This document shows, one piece after another, positions 2,291 to 60,038 of a DNA stretch of 64,000 nt. Positions within the stretch are counted from its first letter, which is position 1. Every line of letters begins with the position of its first letter. The stretch is taken from IMG/VR virus record IMGVR_UViG_3300025018_001404, positions 1-64,000 of that record. The stretch is one strand, 5' to 3'. The notes under the pieces were generated by a model, which saw only the letters and a list, made by a program, of their open reading frames with translations, was not told the origin of the DNA and searched no databases. This DNA comes from a virus. A program made the position numbers and the translations under genes.

Positions 2291-2380
2291 TTTCGACTCC
2301 TGTTTTAGATTCCCCCGCTAGGGGTACTGCTTTAGCTTCCTGGCACTTGTGCCGTTCATCTGATTCGTTTCCTAGCAACC

Positions 2381-2952: not shown

Positions 2953-3022
2953 ACTCCGACTCCTTCACTCTAGTTGACTTTCCATCACTGCACGCTTTCC
3001 AAAGGCGCGCAGGTAAAGAGAG

Positions 3023-3307: not shown

Positions 3308-3569
3308 TCTCGTTGCTCCAGGGTTCAGCTACCTCGGAATAAATATCCCATAGGCGCGCAAGGTTTTTGTCCAGGTTATCGTTTGGGAAAACGTTGCAGA
3401 TCGACTCCCATTCCGACTCAAACTGCAACGCATCGTCACCTTGCACGAAAACCTGCAAACCATCGTGCTGCAGATCATTGCTAGGCTTTTGGTTCAGGGC
3501 ATAGGCGGTACCTTTGCCATAACTGACAAGGGAAAACCGATTCGTATTCTCCATGATGAAACGGCGCAT
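3300..3569 (-). CDS. Hypothetical early protein
   Basis: ORF with RBS GAGGAG. Confidence 0.65.
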   Translation of the reverse strand: MRRFIMENTNRFSLVSYGKGTAYALNQKPSNDLQHDGLQVFVQGDDALQFESEWESICNVFPNDNLDKNLARLWDIYSEVAEPWSNEND

Positions 3570-3644
3570 TAATCCGACTCCTCTTTGGTTGTGACTTTCC
3601 GTAGCTGCCTACAGGTTCCTAGCCTATAGGCAGGTAAGGGAGTC

Positions 3645-3986
3645 TCAATCGCGCCAGATACCGTTGGCAACTTGCGTTTCCTGCCAATGAACAATGGCTG
3701 CAGTCCTTGTAGCTGGTGAGATACCTAGCAGCTTGCACGCCACATTAAGCGCGATAACGCATTTACTCAGGTCCGCGCAGATATCACCTACCGCGCCATA
3801 ATAGGCGTCATCGTAAATCGAGAGGCAGGCATTCTTTTGATAGATCGCGCTTTTGCGTGCCCGGTCATCCCGAGTCATCCTGGCAAAGTCATCATGCGTT
3901 TCCGCCTGCTTTATCAGTTCCCTACGGAACGACTCAACCGTGTTTGGCGTACACACCGCGCCTATAATTTCCTGCACCGTATTCAT
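3645..3986 (-). CDS. Hypothetical early protein
   Basis: Start reassigned to MNTVQE behind RBS GAGGAG. Confidence 0.65.
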   Translation of the reverse strand: MNTVQEIIGAVCTPNTVESFRRELIKQAETHDDFARMTRDDRARKSAIYQKNACLSIYDDAYYGAVGDICADLSKCVIALNVACKLLGISPATRTAAIVHWQETQVANGIWRD

Positions 3987-4054
3987 CTCTCGACTCCTCT
4001 TTTCCGTTTCCAACGAATCGGTCTTTCCCGTTCGTTCGCCATTCTTAGCATCCC

Positions 4055-4871: not shown

Positions 4872-4916
4872 GCCGTGTTAAGAATCGGCCAGAGACAATG
4901 ACAAGTGAGTCGAACA

Positions 4917-5273
4917 ATGAACGCCAGATATCTTGCATCCCGCACTCGCCTAGCATGGCGTCTAGCTCGTCATGGCGCTAACAGGTTCGGCGGTACCGCC
5001 CCGGATTACTTCATCGAGTTCATGCGTGAAGTGTGGGCCGACTATGACGGCGTGCTGGCCTACCTGAGCGGAACGCGCCCTAGCGGGATCATTCCAGCCC
5101 TTTTGGTACAGGTTGTTATTGCAGCCGTGCTTATCGCCATTGGCTACATGTTCCCTGGCCATGACTTCCATATCGTCTTTTTCGGAATGTTTGCCCAGAT
5201 GGCCGCCGCGCTGCCTTTCATCAATCGCGCTTTGAATGAGGAGTCGAACAATGAATACATTCTTGTTGAGTGA
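4917..5273 (+). CDS. Hypothetical membrane protein
   Basis: Two C-terminal hydrophobic segments; GAGTCGAAC-A-ATG start. Confidence 0.65.
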   Translation: MNARYLASRTRLAWRLARHGANRFGGTAPDYFIEFMREVWADYDGVLAYLSGTRPSGIIPALLVQVVIAAVLIAIGYMFPGHDFHIVFFGMFAQMAAALPFINRALNEESNNEYILVE

Positions 5274-17724: not shown

Positions 17725-17915
17725 CTCAGACCACAGCATCCGTGTAGTAGGCAGATCACCCCTAACGGGGACGCGCATAAGCCGAAACGGCAAAAGGTCT
17801 AGAGACGGAGGGGTCGGCGGGACTGCAAGTCGGCACCTTCACCTGAATACGAGAAGGGTACCAAGTGAAAAGGGATCACAGTGAGTGTGGTCGGCGCTTG
17901 GTACCCTTCTTCCTT
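17725..17915 (+). ncRNA. Candidate structured ncRNA or tRNA-operon leader
   Basis: Hairpins GCCG-AAA-CGGC and GAC-TGCAA-GTC; long stem GAAGGGTACCAAG/CTTGGTACCCTTC; GACCACA/TGTGGTC complementarity; no credible ORF. Confidence 0.4.
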
Positions 17916-44197: not shown

Positions 44198-44267
44198 CGT
44201 TTTATTGCCTTCTATGTCAACTGAGTCGGAAACATTAGTCTACGTGTCAGCGGGTTATCCGTCTACA

Positions 44268-50255: not shown

Positions 50256-50404
50256 CCTAGTACAGCTATGATAAGCGATATAACCGCAAGGCTAATAGCG
50301 TGGCCCGGTTTGATGAAATCGCCAGTAAGCGCCTTTATCCCAATGCCAACCACAGCAGCAGCCAACAAAACTCCAAAGAATGAAACCGGAGTAGAATGGA
50401 TCAT
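50252..50404 (-). CDS. 50-aa two-TM membrane peptide
   Basis: MIHSTPVSFFGVLLAAAVVGIG...AISLAVISLIIAVLG; ATGA overlaps at both ends. Confidence 0.55.
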   Translation of the reverse strand: MIHSTPVSFFGVLLAAAVVGIGIKALTGDFIKPGHAISLAVISLIIAVLG

Positions 50405-53379
50405 TTCCTATACCTATACATGGCTTCTCCAGCCGCGCCTACGGGACAACCTTCAGCCCATGGCGGGATCGGGTTTATCATCAGGTCCAAGAACTCTTCC
50501 TGGTTGCCGTGGTCTTCATCGACTTCACAGACCAGTTCGTCATGGACCGTCAGAACAATGGGGTAGCCTGCGGCTTCAACCCTGACCATGGCTTCCACCA
50601 TCAGATCACGAGAGATCGCCTGGACAGCGTTCTCTGTCCAGATACCGGCGTAGCCTCTGCAGATGCCCCAAGCACCGCCACGTTTGTTGTCTCGCCCTTC
50701 ATAAAGGACCTGGGCAGATAATTTACCATTGCCCCACTTATCAATCATTTCGATCTGAGGGTTAAAGTACCATAGAATTCGGCCATTTGGAAGAATCATT
50801 TGCAGCCACTGTCCAGCCTTATCGCTAATGCAGCGGAATGCGAGGTTGCGGTATGAGAATGTTTGCCCTTTGTGTCTTATGGCTTTGACGGCGGCATCAT
50901 CGAGCGCCCACCATAGCGACGTAATAGAAGGGTGCTTCTCTCTCCAAGATTTCTTGAAGTGTTCAACCTGTTCATCGTTGTATGTATCTGATCGGTCGAA
51001 GTTACGCCAAGCACCTATACCTCCAACGTAGCCGAAAGCCAGAGTGCAGGTTTTGCCAACTTGTCTGTCTGTCTTATCTTTCTTGGTAACAAAACGTCCT
51101 AGTACCATCGACGCAGTAGCGCAGTACATGTCATCGAAGCCATTATACTTCTCACCTCTAGCGATAGCACTAAACGCTTCTATAAGCCAGTCTTCACCAG
51201 CTAACCACGCCAGTACCACCGCCTCAATGGCGCTAAAATCCGCAACCCTGAGAATCTTTCCAGGCGCGGCTATAATCATGCCACGAAGAGATGACGCGAT
51301 AGCCTCCATCGGGTCACCAGCCAGAAGGGTAAGGCACTCCAGGTCGCGGTTCTTGATCGCCTCTATCAGGACATCTATGTCTAGTTCTTCGATACCGCGA
51401 GGAAAATTTTGCGGCTGGATTCCCCTACCACTGTTTCCCGTCACCCAAACCTTGCCGTTGCGACGGACCAGGAAGAACCCTGTCTTAGTCTCCGCGCAGT
51501 ACACCCATCCATCGAACTCCTCGGTGGTACGCTCTTTGTCCGGTCGGTACTCGTTACGGTTGCTAGGATTCAACCAGACATTCAGGATGTGGGAATCGTT
51601 CCAGTTCTCTTCGTCGTGGGTCTTAACGGTTACACAGGCAGCAAGTCCAGAAGTGTGCGCCAGGGCTTGAAGGACATCGACGTTCTGCTTAACGACGCTG
51701 CTGTACTGTACTGAGTTAGGTCCAGCGCGATAGCCGTCCCACTGCTCAAGTTCTTCGAATACGATTGTTGGATCACAGTCAAGGAGCCACCAGCCAAATA
51801 CCTTCTCCCTAAACATCCTCAAGAACATCGGTAGGTGACGATACCGTATAGTTAGGGTCGTTGACCCGTCGCTGTACTCTGCAACAGAGAACACTATTCC
51901 GGCTCGACGCAACAGCATCTTACACCGTTGGACCTTACGGTCCTTCTTGAACCGGAATCGAAGTTGCCCGTCCTGAGCGTAGTGACCATCCGCTTGGGTC
52001 ATTACCAGTATACGCAACTGGTCGTTGTCTATACTCGGTGTAAAAGTACGAGTTCCCGTGTACGGCAATTTCACACGCCGATTCAGGTCTTTAACTTCCT
52101 TCACATCAAACTTGGTTGTTTTAACGTCCCAAGTCGGCATTTTATGCTCGGGCGTCGAAAGTTGGTCAACTCGCTTATTAGACAAGTGGATAAGTTCACC
52201 CGTGTACGGAAAGCTAAGAGCCTCGGACTCCTGAAAAGACACCTGCTCATTCTCATTCCAGCAGGCGATATCCCCACCTTGCCACTCATCCAATCTAACC
52301 CAACCATTTGGCGTAAGGACTTCGTGATCGCCAGTAAGGCACCATCGACCGGTTCCTGCTCCGTAGTATTGTAGCGTACCCCTGATGCGGCCATCGTCGT
52401 TTACCGTCGCCAGGAACTTGGACAACTTGGATACGGAACTGCTGGAAAGTTGCTGCCTGATCTCAAGGACTCGGCGGCACGGGCCTTCAACCCACTTGAG
52501 TTTCAGAAAGTCATCTACGGTGTCTGCCTTGAGATCAGGGATGAAGACGTTGTTTGCCTCAAGCCACTCCCGCATGGCGGCTACTTGCTTGCCGGTCTGT
52601 ACCGCGCCTCCGGTGATTTCCTGTAGTTCAGCCGCCAGTCTCTCGACAGTAGTCTCCACGACCCACTGAGCCGCATGTACGGCCTCAAGATCGATCTGCA
52701 CCCCTCGCTGGTTGATGACCTGATCCAGCACCCATATCCTGTACTCAGGGTCAGGGAGATCACCAATCATCTCTGACAGCGCCTCTTCTGTCCTGACATC
52801 CTGGGCGCAGTAGTCGTAGGTTTCCTGGTACAGTTCCGGGAACTCTTCCTTCGTGCGCCACAGCACCGGCCACTGGTCTGGTGTCAGGCCTTCGGCTTCG
52901 AACCGCTTCTTGTCGGCCTTCAGCGGTCTCCTGGGCTTGGACAACTGATCCAGCAGATAGGAGCCGCGCTTGTCCTTCTTCGTCGAGAGGCTGACAACGT
53001 CACCGACTTTATCAAGTGCGAGGGGGAGGGAGCGATAGGCGCACGATGCCAGGGTGTCTACCCATCTTGACGGCATCGGAATGTGGCGGCGCTTGAGTAG
53101 AACATGGTACCAGATGGCCCGCTCGAACTGAGCGTTGTGAGCCTCAAGCGTCCCGCCGTTGGTGTAGAAATCTATGAGTTCCTGGGTAAACCGCTGATCC
53201 GGTGTCCATACTTTTACGTCTTCACCCGGTAGCCTGTACCCAAGACAAATAATTTCAGTAGAATGATGCTCTGCATATCGCCATGCACCGACACCATCTT
53301 TTCCCTTGATCGGGAGTTCAGACCTGGTCTCGAAGTCTACAACTGCTCGCGGTGCAATAAGGGCGGCTGGTCTGGCCAT
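50401..53379 (-). CDS. polA: DNA polymerase family A, intein-containing
   Basis: Exonuclease motifs DFET, AHNAQFE, YCAQD; polymerase motifs ADFSAIE, R..GK...LA.GY, VHDE. Confidence 0.95.
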   Translation of the reverse strand: MARPAALIAPRAVVDFETRSELPIKGKDGVGAWRYAEHHSTEIICLGYRLPGEDVKVWTPDQRFTQELIDFYTNGGTLEAHNAQFERAIWYHVLLKRRHIPMPSRWVDTLASCAYRSLPLALDKVGDVVSLSTKKDKRGSYLLDQLSKPRRPLKADKKRFEAEGLTPDQWPVLWRTKEEFPELYQETYDYCAQDVRTEEALSEMIGDLPDPEYRIWVLDQVINQRGVQIDLEAVHAAQWVVETTVERLAAELQEITGGAVQTGKQVAAMREWLEANNVFIPDLKADTVDDFLKLKWVEGPCRRVLEIRQQLSSSSVSKLSKFLATVNDDGRIRGTLQYYGAGTGRWCLTGDHEVLTPNGWVRLDEWQGGDIACWNENEQVSFQESEALSFPYTGELIHLSNKRVDQLSTPEHKMPTWDVKTTKFDVKEVKDLNRRVKLPYTGTRTFTPSIDNDQLRILVMTQADGHYAQDGQLRFRFKKDRKVQRCKMLLRRAGIVFSVAEYSDGSTTLTIRYRHLPMFLRMFREKVFGWWLLDCDPTIVFEELEQWDGYRAGPNSVQYSSVVKQNVDVLQALAHTSGLAACVTVKTHDEENWNDSHILNVWLNPSNRNEYRPDKERTTEEFDGWVYCAETKTGFFLVRRNGKVWVTGNSGRGIQPQNFPRGIEELDIDVLIEAIKNRDLECLTLLAGDPMEAIASSLRGMIIAAPGKILRVADFSAIEAVVLAWLAGEDWLIEAFSAIARGEKYNGFDDMYCATASMVLGRFVTKKDKTDRQVGKTCTLAFGYVGGIGAWRNFDRSDTYNDEQVEHFKKSWREKHPSITSLWWALDDAAVKAIRHKGQTFSYRNLAFRCISDKAGQWLQMILPNGRILWYFNPQIEMIDKWGNGKLSAQVLYEGRDNKRGGAWGICRGYAGIWTENAVQAISRDLMVEAMVRVEAAGYPIVLTVHDELVCEVDEDHGNQEEFLDLMINPIPPWAEGCPVGAAGEAMYRYRK
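51433..52341 (-). mobile_element. Intein (303 aa) with a LAGLIDADG-type endonuclease
   Basis: Starts CLTGDHEVLTPNGW, block B TPEH, MTQADG and LEQWDG motifs, ends VRRNGKVWVTGN|S. Removing it restores TGRW|SG..IQPQN. Confidence 0.92.
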
Positions 53380-53396
53380 TTTTCCGTCCTGTAAAT

Positions 53397-53497
53397 TTCT
53401 CTTTTCAGAGAACAGGCCCTGGGTCAGGGGGAGGGAACCGACAGACTGCGGAGGAGTCGAAGCTACGCAGTAAGGGGCCTGTTCTCAGAGAAGAGAG
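53397..53497. ncRNA. Branched stem-loop with SD/anti-SD-like loops between ssb and polA
   Basis: Outer stem GAGAACAGGCCC/GGGCCTGTTCTC encloses GTCaGG-GGGAGGGAA-CCGAC and ACTGCG-GAGGAGTCGAAGCTA-CGCAGT. Confidence 0.6.
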
Positions 53498-53586
53498 TGG
53501 TTGGAACCGTTTGTGGAACTAAGCGAACTCGGTATCGCCGTCCCAACCACAATCTTCAATTCACGTCCTAAGCGAATGGAGAACTC

Positions 53587-54288
53587 TTAGAACGGAATCT
53601 CGTCGTCCATGTCCTTGGTCGGGTCGTAGTCGGTTTCGCCGCCATCGATACCGTCGAAACGGTCCATCAGGGAGCCACCGCCGCCGATCCTGTCACCCTG
53701 CTTCACGAACCGGACCTGGTTCAGGTAGAAGGTGATGTGCTTCTCGCCGTCCACTTCAATGGCGCGGAGAGACACTTCGGCGTAACCATAGTTGCCGCCG
53801 ACAAACAGGCCCTTCGCCTTGGACATGCTGGTGTCCAGTTCCCGCGCCACCGTGACCCAGGTGTTCTTGTCCTTGTACTTCAGGGTCGGCGGGTAGTCCT
53901 GCCCGGTCTTGGCGTTGAGGACTTCCATGCCCTCGTAATACTCGGTGCCCTTCTTGCCTGCCTTCAGTTTCTTGGCATGGATATCCGATCCCTTCTTGAT
54001 CGGCCAGCGAAGGTCCTTGGCGGCGACAGCTTCCTTGACGTTGATGCCGTCCCACTTTTCCTTGGCCACGTCCACGAGCACCTTGCGGATGTCAACTTCA
54101 GCCAATTCACCGCTCTCTTCGTCATAGAGGCGGAATTTTGTCAGGTCATCTGGTTCGAACAGCATTTCGGTATTGTAGGTGGGATCGCCCTTCGGCTTGC
54201 CGTTCTGCATGTAAGGACGAGGCTCCAGCAGATTGGGGAACGACATACGAAAGGTCGGGGTAATCAGAACACGCGAGCCACTGGCCAT
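53587..54288 (-). CDS. Single-stranded DNA-binding protein (DUF2815-like)
   Basis: TP.FRMSFPNL.EPR, YLNQVRF...GDRIGGG, acidic tail DDEIPF. Confidence 0.85.
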   Translation of the reverse strand: MASGSRVLITPTFRMSFPNLLEPRPYMQNGKPKGDPTYNTEMLFEPDDLTKFRLYDEESGELAEVDIRKVLVDVAKEKWDGINVKEAVAAKDLRWPIKKGSDIHAKKLKAGKKGTEYYEGMEVLNAKTGQDYPPTLKYKDKNTWVTVARELDTSMSKAKGLFVGGNYGYAEVSLRAIEVDGEKHITFYLNQVRFVKQGDRIGGGGSLMDRFDGIDGGETDYDPTKDMDDEIPF

Positions 54289-54321: not shown

Positions 54322-55476
54322 TTACTCTGAGTCAGTATCCGCCATGTCCATGAGCGGTCTTACTGCTTCTCTTTTATCACTGGTTGCAGCGAGAGTCAAG
54401 TCAGTCTGGGGTTTATATGCAAACTTTGTCACGAATGTCTTACCACCATCCAATTTCTCAATAGCTGGCGGCGTCTTCAGCGACGGTTCTGAATAGGCGT
54501 CGTCACCGAATGTCTCAATGAGGGCTTTGTCCGCACCTTCCTTCCAGACTCTATTCGCTTTTCCATAGACCAGTTTACGACCAGGAATGCTCTCGCCGTT
54601 ACGCGCACGGGTCAGCGCCAGCCTCTCGACGGCCTGAAAGAACTTCACAACCGGGTCCTTCTTATCCAGGATCGCGCCGATTTCCTCAGCGGTCATGTGG
54701 ACAGGGTCAACCGACGTGTCGAACTCCAGGGCTTCTTTCTTCAAGGCAGGGCATGTCCCCGCTTCCTTGGCGGCACAGAACCGGCACCATTCACCGATCT
54801 GCAGCATGGGATCGTCTTCACGTGTCGCTGCCATCGCAGGCAAGGATACTTCGAACCACCAGGCATTCAGTTCCTTGGGGCTTGTCACGTACTTGCGGAT
54901 CGGCCCCTTGGGATGTGGGATTCGCGGCTGGACGATATAGCACTCGACCACCTGGACGTCGTCACCGATGGATTCCAGTCCGAGATAGCCGTAATACTTG
55001 TTCTGGCTGCTGTCAGGTTCGACAACGACGCCTTCACCGTGCTTGTAGTCCACGACAATCAGCCGGTCGCCAGGTACATGGATGATCGTGTCACCAGTAC
55101 CGAAAGCATCCTCATCATAGATGCTGGCCATGCCGTGCTCAATCAGCAGACGAGCGCCGGGAAACTGATCCATCTTTTCACGGATGAACGAGACGTAGAG
55201 CGAGACCGCATCCGCCATGTCAGGATCGACTTCGAAGGTGAAATCCTCGACAGCAATGGACTGGCCGATGAACTCCCAGGTTTCCTTACCCTGCTCCAGA
55301 GCCATCGAGCCTACCAGATGAGCGGCAGTACCCTGAGCAGCGGCTTCATTGGTCTTGTGGGCGCTGTCACCGAGAGCAACCGTCTGCTTCACGGAGCCGG
55401 GACAGTTCGACCAGCGAGACATGCTGGAAGCGCCTAGCCTGCTGTGGCGTACCTCTTCAGTCTGGATAGCGTTCAC
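54322..55476 (-). CDS. Cas4-like PD-(D/E)XK exonuclease (DUF2800-like)
   Basis: HSRLGASS..RW..CPGS, GTAAH, FGTGD, DYKHG.G, IVQPR, WCRFC.A...C. Confidence 0.88.
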   Translation of the reverse strand: MNAIQTEEVRHSRLGASSMSRWSNCPGSVKQTVALGDSAHKTNEAAAQGTAAHLVGSMALEQGKETWEFIGQSIAVEDFTFEVDPDMADAVSLYVSFIREKMDQFPGARLLIEHGMASIYDEDAFGTGDTIIHVPGDRLIVVDYKHGEGVVVEPDSSQNKYYGYLGLESIGDDVQVVECYIVQPRIPHPKGPIRKYVTSPKELNAWWFEVSLPAMAATREDDPMLQIGEWCRFCAAKEAGTCPALKKEALEFDTSVDPVHMTAEEIGAILDKKDPVVKFFQAVERLALTRARNGESIPGRKLVYGKANRVWKEGADKALIETFGDDAYSEPSLKTPPAIEKLDGGKTFVTKFAYKPQTDLTLAATSDKREAVRPLMDMADTDSE

Positions 55477-55667
55477 GGTTCGACTCCGTCAAATACTGGT
55501 AACTGGTTTCATATTCTCGATCAGCCTCATAATGTCACCGGCCTTGTTCAGAGACTGATTCCGAAGGTGTTCCTCGTAAGGGGATGCACGCTCAGACCAA
55601 GTCCCGTTCCACGCAGACGGGTCTATGACTTTGGCGATCTCGATCATGATGTCGAAAGGTTCGCTCA

Positions 55668-59229: not shown

Positions 59230-59545
59230 TCTTCTCTCCATACTTAGACAGGGCTTTAGCCGCCATACGGTCAGCAATATCTGCTCGCGACCGATGGATA
59301 TCCGCCTGCTTTTCCTTGCGAGCGATAAACGATTCCAGCGCCTCTGCTAGGGTGGGGCAGGCAAACTTCCGGTATGCATCCTTTAGGACGAACCGCTTTC
59401 CGCCAAAACTGCCACGCTTCAGCCAGACACCTCTTGGGGTATGTTTGATAACGTCGTAGACGGTATAGTAAGTGTCATCGTCCCAGCCGCTTGACTGCGA
59501 GAATGCGCGGTCGTCCAGGCGGTACCAAATTTCCGGTTCGTCCAT
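59210..59545 (-). CDS. Hypothetical phage protein
   Basis: VIKHTP.GVW, FACPT..EALESFIARK..Q. Confidence 0.7.
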   Translation of the reverse strand: MDEPEIWYRLDDRAFSQSSGWDDDTYYTVYDVIKHTPRGVWLKRGSFGGKRFVLKDAYRKFACPTLAEALESFIARKEKQADIHRSRADIADRMAAKALSKYGEKNDRLPV

Positions 59546-59600
59546 CGACTCCTCATATCCTTGCTACACCGGTCACCTCGCGGGCGACTCAAGAGGCATA

Positions 59601-59659
59601 ATCATACTAAGATTGCAGCCAATGTCAATATTGACTTTCGTGACATACATAGGTAGACT
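59601..59659. promoter_or_regulatory. Back-to-back divergent promoters
   Basis: Minus strand TTGACA-16bp-TATGAT (59601-59628); plus strand TTGACT-17bp-TAGACT (59631-59659). Confidence 0.75.
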
Positions 59660-59685: not shown

Positions 59686-60021
59686 ATGAAAATCGCGTTG
59701 AGCGACGTAGCCCTCATTTTGAGTGTGCATCCCCGCACTGTTGTTCGTGCGTTCAAGGAACATGGGATGGAAGTAGGGTACGACTCTGTCGTACAGGTTG
59801 ACGATGTTGGTAAAGTCTTTGATTTCGATCCGGAATATCTCCGTCGAGTCGTGTCTCACCAGGACACCCTGTTGAAACCTGCCGACGCCGCAGCCGAACT
59901 GTCGCTGGCCTTGAGAACCTTCCGCTACCGGGACTACCCTGTGCTGATCAGCAAGAATCGGGTGGTTCGGTACTCCCGCAATGACATCGTCAAATCGCAC
60001 CTCGCTAACTACCTCCTCTAA
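59686..60021 (+). CDS. Tandem-HTH DNA-binding protein
   Basis: LSDVALILSVHPRTVVR and LLKPADAAAELSLALRTF...VRY...DI (excisionase/MerR-like). Confidence 0.75.
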   Translation: MKIALSDVALILSVHPRTVVRAFKEHGMEVGYDSVVQVDDVGKVFDFDPEYLRRVVSHQDTLLKPADAAAELSLALRTFRYRDYPVLISKNRVVRYSRNDIVKSHLANYLL

Positions 60022-60038
60022 GCGAAGGAACCTCGGTA

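Follow-up and report, generated by a model that had tools for sequence, protein, structure and literature searches.

What does a strongly folded stretch do between two replication genes of a phage, and is the likeness of its loops to the ribosome-binding sites (RBSs) of the same genome functional? The element in question belongs to an uncultured groundwater phage with a genome of 77.6 kb, of which the first 64 kb (64,000 nt, here called the window) were analysed as one stretch. It occurs once in the genome and occupies the largest gap between genes of the same strand (207 nt). Here we propose, with a probability of roughly one in three, that an intercistronic RNA from the replication operon, perhaps cut at a 22-bp helix, pairs with RBSs in the manner of the CcsR/cuckoo small RNAs.

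A three-way junction between SSB and polA

The gap separates the gene of an Enc34-type ssDNA-binding protein (SSB) from that of a 992-aa family A DNA polymerase (polA), whose product carries an insertion of about 303 aa when aligned to a 697-aa relative. The genes and the parts of the element are as follows.

53587–54288, minus strand: upstream gene, SSB (PF10991, E = 4.7e-13)
50401–53379, minus strand: downstream gene, polA (PF00476, E = 6.4e-16)
53377–53392, minus strand: polA start codon (53379–53377) with its weak Shine–Dalgarno (SD) sequence AGGACGG, predicted to be unpaired and to lie outside the structure
53397–53497, minus strand (mRNA strand): the whole three-way-junction RNA element, an outer helix with two inner hairpins
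53475–53496, minus strand: outer helix, 5' arm on the mRNA (inverted repeat I1, 22 nt, 91% complementary)
53398–53419, minus strand: outer helix, 3' arm on the mRNA, ending about 18 nt ahead of the polA AUG
53445–53471, minus strand: hairpin B, a 6-bp stem with a 15-nt loop (53451–53465), UAGCUUCGACUCCUC on the mRNA strand
53423–53442, minus strand: hairpin A, a 5-bp stem including one G-U pair on the minus strand; mRNA-strand loop UUCCCUCCCC(CU), with CCUCC
53490–53557, minus strand: upstream hairpin of the same gap (inverted repeat I2)

A branched hairpin with two loops had been described at this place in an earlier note on the sequence, and it is present: the 101 nt fold into a three-way junction on both strands (z about -5.5), at -43.2 kcal/mol on the minus strand (z -5.8) and -50.3 kcal/mol on the plus strand (z -5.4), and none of 300 dinucleotide shuffles was as stable on either strand. 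As written in the window, the loop at 53451–53465 is GAGGAGTCGAAGCTA and the second loop, at 53426–53438, is AGGGGGAGGGAAC, which includes GGGAGGGAA; the unpaired probability of loop bases in the ensemble is mostly 0.8–1.0. The outer helix comprises 20 pairs and two mismatches on the minus strand and 21 pairs and one mismatch on the plus strand, and its 22-nt arms provide the roughly two turns (about 22 bp) of double helix that characterize an RNase III signal. In a 331-nt fold, the base of the I2 hairpin (GAAGA/UCUUC) competes with the lowest 6–7 pairs of this helix as an alternative pairing. In a stability scan with 110-nt windows moved in 15-nt steps, the element did not stand out, because the grid skipped it and GC-rich coding windows have similar energies.

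Comparison of positions 52800–54200 with all 4227 Rfam families (cmscan, E up to 10) returned five unrelated hits at chance level, and a scan of the whole window at Rfam gathering scores returned one tRNA and nothing else. A tRNA-like element was rejected, as ARAGORN reports no tRNAs other than tRNA-Met and tRNA-Leu, both near 18 kb. A small ORF in the gap was likewise rejected, the frames there being of 24–55 aa and without a convincing start.

I1 is the longest of the ten inverted-repeat pairs reported for the window and lies inside the replication module, and the spacer ahead of polA varies among relatives, one of which (L002) has an HNH-like ORF there, judging by translation. The palindrome might accordingly act as DNA, near the replication genes, by starting replication, binding a protein or attracting recombination as a hotspot. 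We regard this as very improbable: the content of the loops would be left unexplained, and cruciform extrusion is unlikely with 55 nt between the arms. An origin at the element was rejected, as GC skew passes 53.4 kb without inflection, within a uniformly minus-transcribed block, and there are no iterons, the short repeats being 9-mers only.

Which strand is transcribed

All genes across 41–60 kb, including both neighbours of the element, lie on the minus strand. Of the minus-strand sigma-70-like sites, the best three match at 11 of 12 positions (59628, 56540 and 47330), and none that good lies between 56540 and 47330. Because every neighbouring gene is on the minus strand, with minus-strand promoter-like sites, we expect this to be the strand transcribed across the element. 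Consensus scans found neither a promoter nor an intrinsic terminator at the element itself, and the stem is not followed by the U-run of an intrinsic terminator (tails AAAUUUACAGG on the minus strand and GUGGUUGG on the plus strand). Gene order and these scans would fit a place between cistrons of one transcript, itself predicted from the consensus matches.

The opposite strand would give an antisense RNA displaying GGAGG and GGAGUCGAA, a decoy for ribosomes or for readers of early RBSs, and the earlier note had thought it favoured by three G-U wobbles in the outer stem. The predicted plus-strand fold has two (53404–53490 and 53420–53474), which become mismatches on the minus strand. This reading draws on about 7 kcal/mol of extra stability and one more G-U pair, together with a loop that would reproduce the RBS consensus very closely, only with no start codon behind it. 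Hairpin A, however, is better on the minus strand, where it holds the single G-U pair of the predicted fold (53426–53439). No plus-strand promoter-like site occurs within 2 kb upstream of the element, the closest ones being those at 51053 (9 of 12 matches) and 51248 (10 of 12); no terminator was found after it on that strand, and the genes from 41 to 60 kb all run the other way. A plus-strand decoy is thus the reading in which we place least belief, and we continue with the minus-strand RNA.

An extended motif at the ribosome-binding sites

The earlier note had reported an extended motif, (GAG)GAGTCG(A/G)A, directly before eight start codons. All eight sites are confirmed, and each is followed by ATG or GTG.

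2294–2300, minus strand: GGAGTCG RBS of the gene starting at 2290 (GAGTCGRA at 2292)
2957–2963, minus strand: GGAGTCG RBS of the gene starting at 2952 (GAGTCGRA at 2955)
3575–3581, minus strand: GGAGTCG RBS of the gene starting at 3569 (GAGTCGRA at 3573)
3991–3997, minus strand: GGAGTCG RBS of the gene starting at 3986
4907–4914, plus strand: GAGTCGAA, without GG, ahead of the ATG at 4917 (GAGTCGRA site at 4907)
5238–5248, plus strand: GAGGAGTCGAA RBS of the gene starting at 5251 (GAGTCGRA at 5241)
55481–55487, minus strand: GGAGTCG RBS of a DUF2800 gene (GTG at 55476; GAGTCGRA at 55479)
59546–59552, minus strand: GGAGTCG directly next to the ATG at 59545; GGAG and the start codon are only 3 nt apart

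The DUF2800 gene belongs to the same operon as the hairpin, and three further motif-bearing starts (76116, 77343 and 77051) lie past the end of the window. Counted post hoc, since the motif had been chosen after the loop was viewed, GGAGTCG occurs 19 times in the genome against 11.1 expected (3 of 100 shuffles reach 19) and GAGTCGRA 12 times against 5.5 (0 of 100 reach 12). TCG follows GGAG at 8 of 45 RBS positions and at 16 of 462 places elsewhere (p = 1.4e-4), a count that the earlier note had suggested and that came out in favour of enrichment at starts. In the two nearest relatives, RBS-positioned GGAG is never followed by TCG (0 of 9 and 0 of 46 cases). The extension is a genuine feature, specific to this lineage. 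Methylation by CcrM at GANTC was rejected as the cause of GAGTC: GANTC, with 378 sites, shows no depletion, and 97 occurrences of GAGTC against 80 expected amount to no signal.

The motif had also been described as confined to early and replication-side genes and missing from virion gene starts. It is indeed absent from the latter (0 of 9 versus 8 of 36), a difference that falls short of significance (Fisher p = 0.14), so that a restriction to early or replication genes, themselves 'early' by prediction, is not statistically established.

An extension of 7–9 nt common to about ten RBSs calls for a specific reader, and the phage's UCG(A/G)A presumably does not match the usual 16S tail. That reader might be a protein, and T4 gp43 and gp32 are precedents for protein-regulated synthesis through a translational operator. 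By analogy, the element, which sits directly upstream of the polA start region, would be an operator for the polymerase or SSB acting on polymerase synthesis, or for a repressor that also reads GGAGUCGRA at the other starts, and its loop would be incidental. According to PMC3014915, the T4 polymerase acts as a repressor of its own mRNA at a hairpin lying upstream together with the RBS, and the gene 43 operator of T4 and RB69 resembles our element in being an RNA hairpin just upstream of the RBS of a phage DNA polymerase; RegA and RegB, for their part, act on sets of early start regions (PMC3014915, PMC1702504). The gene 43 hairpin, however, has 16–18 bases and its operator overlaps the RBS (PMC3014915), whereas the phage element is 101 nt long and stops 18 nt short of the AUG, with the polA SD unpaired and outside the structure. 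A protein that reads GGAGUCGRA would moreover not read the mRNA-strand loop, which is the motif's complement, and a RegB-like nuclease was rejected (PF10715, 0 matches). We therefore hold a protein operator to be improbable.

Fit of the loops to start regions

Both minus-strand loops, UAGCUUCGACUCCUC(C) in hairpin B and (G)UUCCCUCCCCCU in hairpin A, have a CCUCC core (GGAGG on the plus strand), which in hairpin B is read into the closing pair; from the genome's GGAGG frequency, the chance of this is roughly 9e-5. Across the 40 gaps of the genome (4,077 nt), plus-strand GGAGG is found only at the element's two loops. Loop B also contains the complement of GGAGUCGAA and continues into the exact complement of GGAGUCG(A/G)A, with a U opposite the A/G position. 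An 11-mer of this loop is identical to the RBS at 5238–5248, and the loop site ranks third among non-RBS matches to an RBS-motif matrix (about 155,000 positions).

Duplex energies were computed for loop B against 135 start regions, a list drawn up with a home-made ORF caller, three hand corrections and three additions that includes spurious ORFs, and controls were 200 flank-shuffled versions of the loop in which the CUCCUC core was kept. At -14 kcal/mol or below, loop B pairs with 16 of the 135 regions; the controls average 5.9 regions, and none of the 200 gets beyond 15. The excess fades at looser thresholds, with 28 start regions against 16.5 in controls at -12 kcal/mol (7 of 200 controls as high) and 43 against 38.3 at -10 kcal/mol (55 of 200). 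The nine best motif-bearing targets range from -15.6 to -20.9 kcal/mol. Both flanking genes have weak AGGA-type SDs in their start regions, and the energies of loop B there are -6.2 kcal/mol for polA and -4.9 kcal/mol for SSB. Sequestration of the polA SD in cis was rejected, as the SD is unpaired in the centroid fold and forms poor duplexes with the two loops, at only -6.2 and -8.3 kcal/mol.

The proposal of the earlier note that the minus-strand loop is an antisense seed thus gains support that is statistical rather than direct, from the CCUCC of both loops and from a loop B that exceeds 200 of 200 controls. Overall, its interpretation of the locus is partly supported.

Relatives and the plainer reading

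Where they cover the stretch, contigs from four other metagenome runs (X2, X3, X4 and X6) are identical to it, parts being uncovered in some runs. Among the 18 sequencing runs listed, none was an RNA run holding the stretch. A covariance model of the element matched only the element itself among 63 sources (523,550 bases), searches of IMG/VR by hairpin pattern and by SSB each gave 0 matches, and the phage GenBank records gave none by DNA or by SSB protein. The best non-self SSB relative (P0003) is 63% identical and lies on a 2.7-kb contig; other SSB hits reach at most 52%. Related loci found through polA (19 viral, 35 metagenomic and 1 genomic) are all at most 55% identical and have unrelated spacers, and this includes the closest polA relatives, at 54–55%, whose spacers are different. 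The polA start was found at 37 of 49 loci of relatives, and the spacer ahead of it is at least 50 nt long in 14 of the 37 and at most 13 nt in 23. Among 12 non-duplicate spacers that were folded, four are strongly structured (z <= -2.6; L010, L015, L032 and L047), and that of L001 forms a 10-bp GC hairpin. Relatives that have a spacer often have just a simple GC hairpin there, which fits a plainer function.

These data bear on whether the element is a functionless remnant, left when the variable spacer was rearranged or received an insertion, its loop matches being coincidental. The element is unique, with no homologue in the sequences searched; the spacer varies among relatives; and the motif match was picked post hoc. 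Phage genomes are compact, however, and no other same-strand gap of this one is as large; the gap holds a fold far outside that of shuffles, a sequence identical in contigs of four other runs where covered, and two independent, improbable loop features. A leftover seems to us as doubtful as the protein operator.

A plain cis-acting hairpin is almost as likely as an RNA that pairs with RBSs. As an intercistronic site for processing by RNase III or otherwise, a stabiliser of the SSB 3' end or a leaky transcription barrier, it would set the ratio of SSB to polymerase, and the likeness of its loops would have no function. It sits between SSB, which is needed in bulk, and the polymerase, which is needed in small amounts, in an operon without a promoter or terminator of its own at that point. 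Its 22-nt arms equal the idealised two-turn substrate of E. coli RNase III, given as 22 bp in passages of PMC3867540, and a hairpin ahead of polA recurs in relatives without conservation of its sequence. Yet a simple hairpin would suffice for such a role, which leaves the three-way junction unexplained, as it does the CCUCC in both loops (about 9e-5, and the only two in 40 gaps) and the fit of loop B beyond its core (0 of 200 controls). A spacer of at most 13 nt suffices in 23 of 37 relatives, a small ORF seems to lie within the structured spacer of L032, and a canonical terminator would have a U-run.

Comparison with known systems

As described in passages of PMC8034643 and PMC10746234, the CcsR/cuckoo RNAs of Alphaproteobacteria (alpha-r14, NfeR1) have no gene of their own and are made from a longer mRNA, being cut from a 3' or 5' UTR; they consist of two hairpins, each with an anti-SD loop, and many RBSs are predicted as their partners. 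Unpaired anti-SD loops on several hairpins are common to these RNAs and the phage element (PMC8034643, PMC10746234). RNase E-type processing releases members of the family, and the phage element lies inside a predicted operon. The phage element differs in that the exact cuckoo 9-mer, CCUCCUCCC, is in neither of its loops, which read CUCCUCC and CCCUCCCCC, in that no Rfam family matches it (E up to 10), and in its position between SSB and polA rather than beside a DUF1127 gene. Its hairpins are furthermore closed by a 22-bp helix, and one loop is extended towards the phage's private RBS extension. The cuckoo-like loops of the earlier note therefore stand as far as the CCUCC in both is concerned, and the likeness does not extend to the exact motif, an Rfam match or a DUF1127 neighbour.

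The RNase III signals of T7 are single irregular hairpins, in contrast to a three-way junction with anti-SD loops, whose cleavage is a prediction. The likeness lies in stable hairpins of about two turns placed between cistrons of a phage operon, and the T7 polycistronic early precursor carries five such processing signals (passages of PMC3867540).

In T4, RegB targets GGAG with a 3' extension, 11 nt in total, according to PMC1702504 and PMC3014915. A class of genes with a common sequence at or near the SD is jointly turned down after infection by RegB/RegA, as is proposed here (PMC1702504, PMC3014915). There the reader is a protein, a nuclease or a repressor, whereas an RNA loop is proposed here; the phage's extension is UCG(A/G)A and not A-rich, and a RegB homologue is absent. 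If real, the predicted RNA-based timer discussed below would be an RNA counterpart of T4 RegB/RegA.

UTR-derived and intergenic ncRNA candidates have also been reported from the virulent Pseudomonas phages PAK_P3, YuA and phiKZ, among them short structured UTR RNAs, some located immediately ahead of replication genes, for instance that for the PAK_P3 primase/helicase (passages of PMC10914365). Those candidates were detected as transcripts and show conservation within genera, whereas the present element is predicted and has no relative in our searches; the passages concerned do not describe anti-SD loops (PMC10914365).

Proposed mechanism and its meaning

In the RBS-pairing model, the element would reside in the polycistronic minus-strand mRNA of the replication operon, in the spacer between SSB and polymerase. 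Its two-turn outer helix may signal processing by a double-strand-specific (RNase III-type) enzyme, or stabilisation, and processing there would uncouple expression of the polymerase from that of SSB and leave a stable two-hairpin RNA. The loops of the released RNA would then pair with RBSs, and translation from these would fall while the operon is being transcribed. Predicted to be hit most strongly are about ten small genes with GGAGUCG(A/G)A, at 2.3–5.3, 55.5, 59.5 and 76–77 kb; the flanking SSB and polA starts would escape, having weak AGGA-type SDs. It is unlikely, in our estimate, that the model holds in its most specific form, that of a translational timer in which a spacer-derived two-loop anti-SD RNA, its seed co-evolved with the private RBS extension, silences a dozen small early genes while the neighbouring replication genes escape through atypical SDs.

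A lytic-phage RNA with anti-SD loops against its own early RBSs has no description among the papers listed in a limited literature search. If the plain reading is true, the element joins the intercistronic hairpins that serve processing or stability, and its interest is purely local. To our knowledge, early-gene shut-off in lytic phages is known mainly through proteins, for example T4 RegA, RegB and Alc. If the RBS-pairing reading is true, an operon-embedded RNA that mirrors the start signals of its own phage would time expression by another and very economical route, and it would account for the retention, in a subset of genes, of an RBS extension that seemingly does not pair with the usual 16S tail.

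Locus and fold of the element

The virus record is a single sequence of 77,643 bp, of which the window covers the initial 64 kb, and identical sequence occurs in metagenome runs of aquifer-type and other environmental origin. The element, a predicted three-way junction at 53397-53497, occupies part of a 207-nt gap (53380-53586) that separates two genes of the minus strand; a DUF2800 gene is found farther upstream of SSB. By a simple longest-ORF map of the whole genome, this is the largest same-strand intergenic gap.

Features of the gap and its neighbours
53587-54288, minus strand: Enc34-type ssDNA-binding protein gene (SSB), upstream of the gap (PF10991, E = 4.7e-13)
53445-53471: hairpin B, within the outer arms, with its loop at 53451-53465
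53423-53442: hairpin A, within the outer arms
50401-53379, minus strand: family A DNA polymerase gene (polA), downstream of the gap (PF00476, E = 6.4e-16)

The two outer arms, at 53398-53419 and 53475-53496, make up an inverted repeat of 22 nt with 91% complementarity, the longest among 10 inverted-repeat pairs reported in the window; a role for it at the DNA level is quite improbable. The predicted 101-nt fold has a free energy of -50.3 kcal/mol on the plus strand (z -5.4) and -43.2 kcal/mol on the minus strand (z -5.8), no shuffle among 300 was as stable on either strand, and both loops are predicted to be open. The sequence agrees with its description in the earlier note. In the mRNA, a second hairpin lies upstream (53490-53557) and competes with the outer helix for the lowest pairs of that helix. 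The element is single-copy in the genome, has no Rfam family match in searches of the region and the whole window, and was ruled out as a tRNA by a tRNA search.

The 9-mer TTCGCTTAG occurs without mismatch exactly three times in the window, each time on the minus strand (53519-53527, 53568-53576 and 60018-60026), and two of the copies are in the gap. These two lie 49 nt apart and the third is in the gap heading the leftward operon; TACCGAG stands just upstream of the copies at 53527 and 60026, with spacings that differ by 5 nt. The neighbouring polA carries an insertion of about 303 aa (window 51433-52341, minus), absent from a 697-aa relative, that begins between TGRW and CLTGDHEVL and ends between VWVTGN and SGR. 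It had no match in Pfam and a sole, chance-level match in NCBIfam; it resembles an intein whose middle part is endonuclease-like. Elsewhere, a scan of the genome in segments of 110 nt found the greatest stability at a second compound hairpin, 17852-17910 (plus), with perfect 14-nt arms around an inner hairpin and then a T/C-rich tail, which lies between a small gene and a tRNA-Met and may be a terminator or tRNA processing signal.

Transcribed strand

All genes from about 41 to 60 kb are on the minus strand. A consensus scan found three minus-strand sites with 11/12 matches, located in gaps at 59628, 56540 and 47330; between the last two there was no site of equal quality. On the plus strand, the 2 kb upstream of the element contained no promoter-like site, and the element lacks an intrinsic terminator tail on both strands. 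From the gene strands and these scans we infer a polycistronic mRNA on the minus strand that starts near 56.5 kb, contains SSB and the element, and continues into polA. The polA SD (AGGACGG) lies 3' of the structure on this strand and is unpaired in the predicted fold.

G-U wobbles had been taken to favour the plus strand. The minimum-energy fold has two on the plus strand, both in the outer stem rather than the three claimed there, and one on the minus strand, in hairpin A, so the count leans slightly to plus and cannot settle the strand. A decoy RNA from the plus strand, the product that this lean would suit and for which the scan offers no promoter-like site within 2 kb upstream, is the least probable of the readings considered here.

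A promoter-like box, TTGACATAGA, was also seen at 44211-44220 (minus), only some 17 nt ahead of the ATG of a gene that neighbours a 774-aa gene on its downstream side (start in the 44197 region); this position suggests that the message is leaderless or has a very short leader.

Loops and the extended RBS motif

Read as mRNA, loop B is UAGCUUCGACUCCUC and loop A is GUUCCCUCCCCCU. Both contain CCUCC (in loop B when the closing pair is included), with a rough chance of 9e-5 of both carrying it on one strand, given the genome's GGAGG frequency (105, both strands); across 40 gaps (4,077 nt), plus-strand GGAGG occurs only at the two loops. An 11-mer of loop B recurs in the RBS at 5238-5248, and 9-10-mers of it recur in four other RBSs; the loop is also the third-best non-training match to the RBS-motif matrix among about 155,000 positions, statistics to be read with the motif having been picked after the loop was known.

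In RNAduplex, loop B reached -14 kcal/mol or lower with 16 of 135 start regions, from a list made with a home-made caller plus three corrections and three additions that includes spurious ORFs. In 200 controls that retained the CUCCUC core between shuffled flanks, the mean was 5.9 and the maximum 15, so that none reached 16. At -12 kcal/mol the count was 28 against a control mean of 16.5 (7/200 as high), and at -10 kcal/mol 43 against 38.3 (55/200). Because a U of the loop stands opposite the motif's A/G position, both variants are able to pair. The flanking polA and SSB start regions pair poorly (-4.9 to -8.3 kcal/mol). A protein-bound operator is an unlikely reading of the element.

For GGAGTCG the window has 19 occurrences where 11.1 are expected (3/100 shuffles reach 19) and the whole genome 24; for GAGTCGRA there are 12 where 5.5 are expected (0/100 reach 12). 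Under a fixed rule, which asks for ATG or GTG 4-9 nt past GGAG, an ORF no shorter than 50 codons and no more than 40 upstream open codons, 45 of 507 GGAG are RBS-positioned, and TCG follows 8 of these 45 as against 16 of the 462 others (p = 1.4e-4); the comparison of starts with the rest of the genome proposed in the earlier note thus yields an enrichment. All eight starts to which that note assigned the motif have it, with three more beyond the window; the genes are mostly small and of unknown function. Sites at 59545 (spacer 3), 4917 (GAGTCGAA without GG) and 77051 fall outside the rule. The motif's reported absence from virion gene starts holds as a count (0/9 in the virion block), while the contrast with 8/36 elsewhere is not significant (p = 0.14).

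TC follows GGAG at 14/45 start sites in the whole genome, and many virion gene starts have GGAGA instead, so two types of RBS seem to coexist in the phage. The extension probably adds no pairing with the usual 16S 3' tail. The two nearest relatives with fully readable records have 0/9 (G001) and 0/46 (G002), and against these two records the extension is, by sequence, private to the studied phage.

Comparison with relatives

Phage GenBank records gave no match, and IMG/VR gave none to the hairpin pattern or to SSB, for which the nearest protein in a large collection is 63% identical. A search with the N-terminal part of polA gave 19 loci from viruses, 35 from metagenomes and 1 from a genome (best 54-55% identity). 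Where the polA start was identified (37 of 49 loci examined), the upstream gene ends within 13 nt in 23 and the spacer is at least 50 nt in 14. Four of 12 non-duplicate spacers folded were strongly structured and that of locus L001 has a 10-bp GC hairpin; none of the 12 resembles the element, and a covariance model built from it matched only the element itself in 63 sources (523,550 bases). Contigs from four other runs are letter-identical wherever the stretch is covered. A leftover without function, as a structure found in one phage might be, is no likelier than the protein-bound operator.

In locus L002 (polA 52% identical), an ORF directly upstream of polA (409-834) has what we take, from reading its translation, to be HNH-endonuclease-like motifs; the spacer before polA therefore appears to be a variable insertion place in the group. 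In the distant locus L010 (3935-3991; polA 38% identity; also L011 and L038), CCCTCCTCC precedes the polA SD GGAGG and pairs with it in a predicted small hairpin that directly follows a strong GC one, an arrangement that is, as modelled, a cis anti-SD before polA. The polA SD of L015 likewise lies within a small hairpin.

A candidate anti-SD RNA

We tentatively favour, at a probability of about 0.35, an operon-embedded RNA whose outer helix would be a processing or stabilising signal and whose loops would pair with RBSs. This reading ranks first because, on the strand expected to be transcribed, each of the open loops has an anti-SD core and loop B fits the phage-private extension, two features that exceed what a generic intercistronic hairpin would show. 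The CcsR/cuckoo sRNAs are the closest known RNAs. In length the outer helix equals an idealised RNase III substrate, and T7 offers the classic case of RNase III signals between phage cistrons (PMC3867540). Ranked second, and itself doubtful, is a plain processing or stability hairpin.

According to PMC8034643 and PMC10746234, both hairpins of the CcsR/cuckoo sRNAs bear an anti-SD loop, and these RNAs are excised from a UTR, either 3' or 5'. The element likewise has two hairpins with an anti-SD core in each loop, but it is phage-borne and enclosed in a two-turn helix. It does not belong to the cuckoo family, because it lacks the 9-mer motif, matches no family model and stands in a different genomic context. 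Among the literature matches listed, we found no description of such an RNA in a lytic phage. If the favoured reading is true, the element would be a phage-borne regulatory RNA with anti-SD loops, enclosed in a two-turn helix, its seed matched to the phage's own RBSs.
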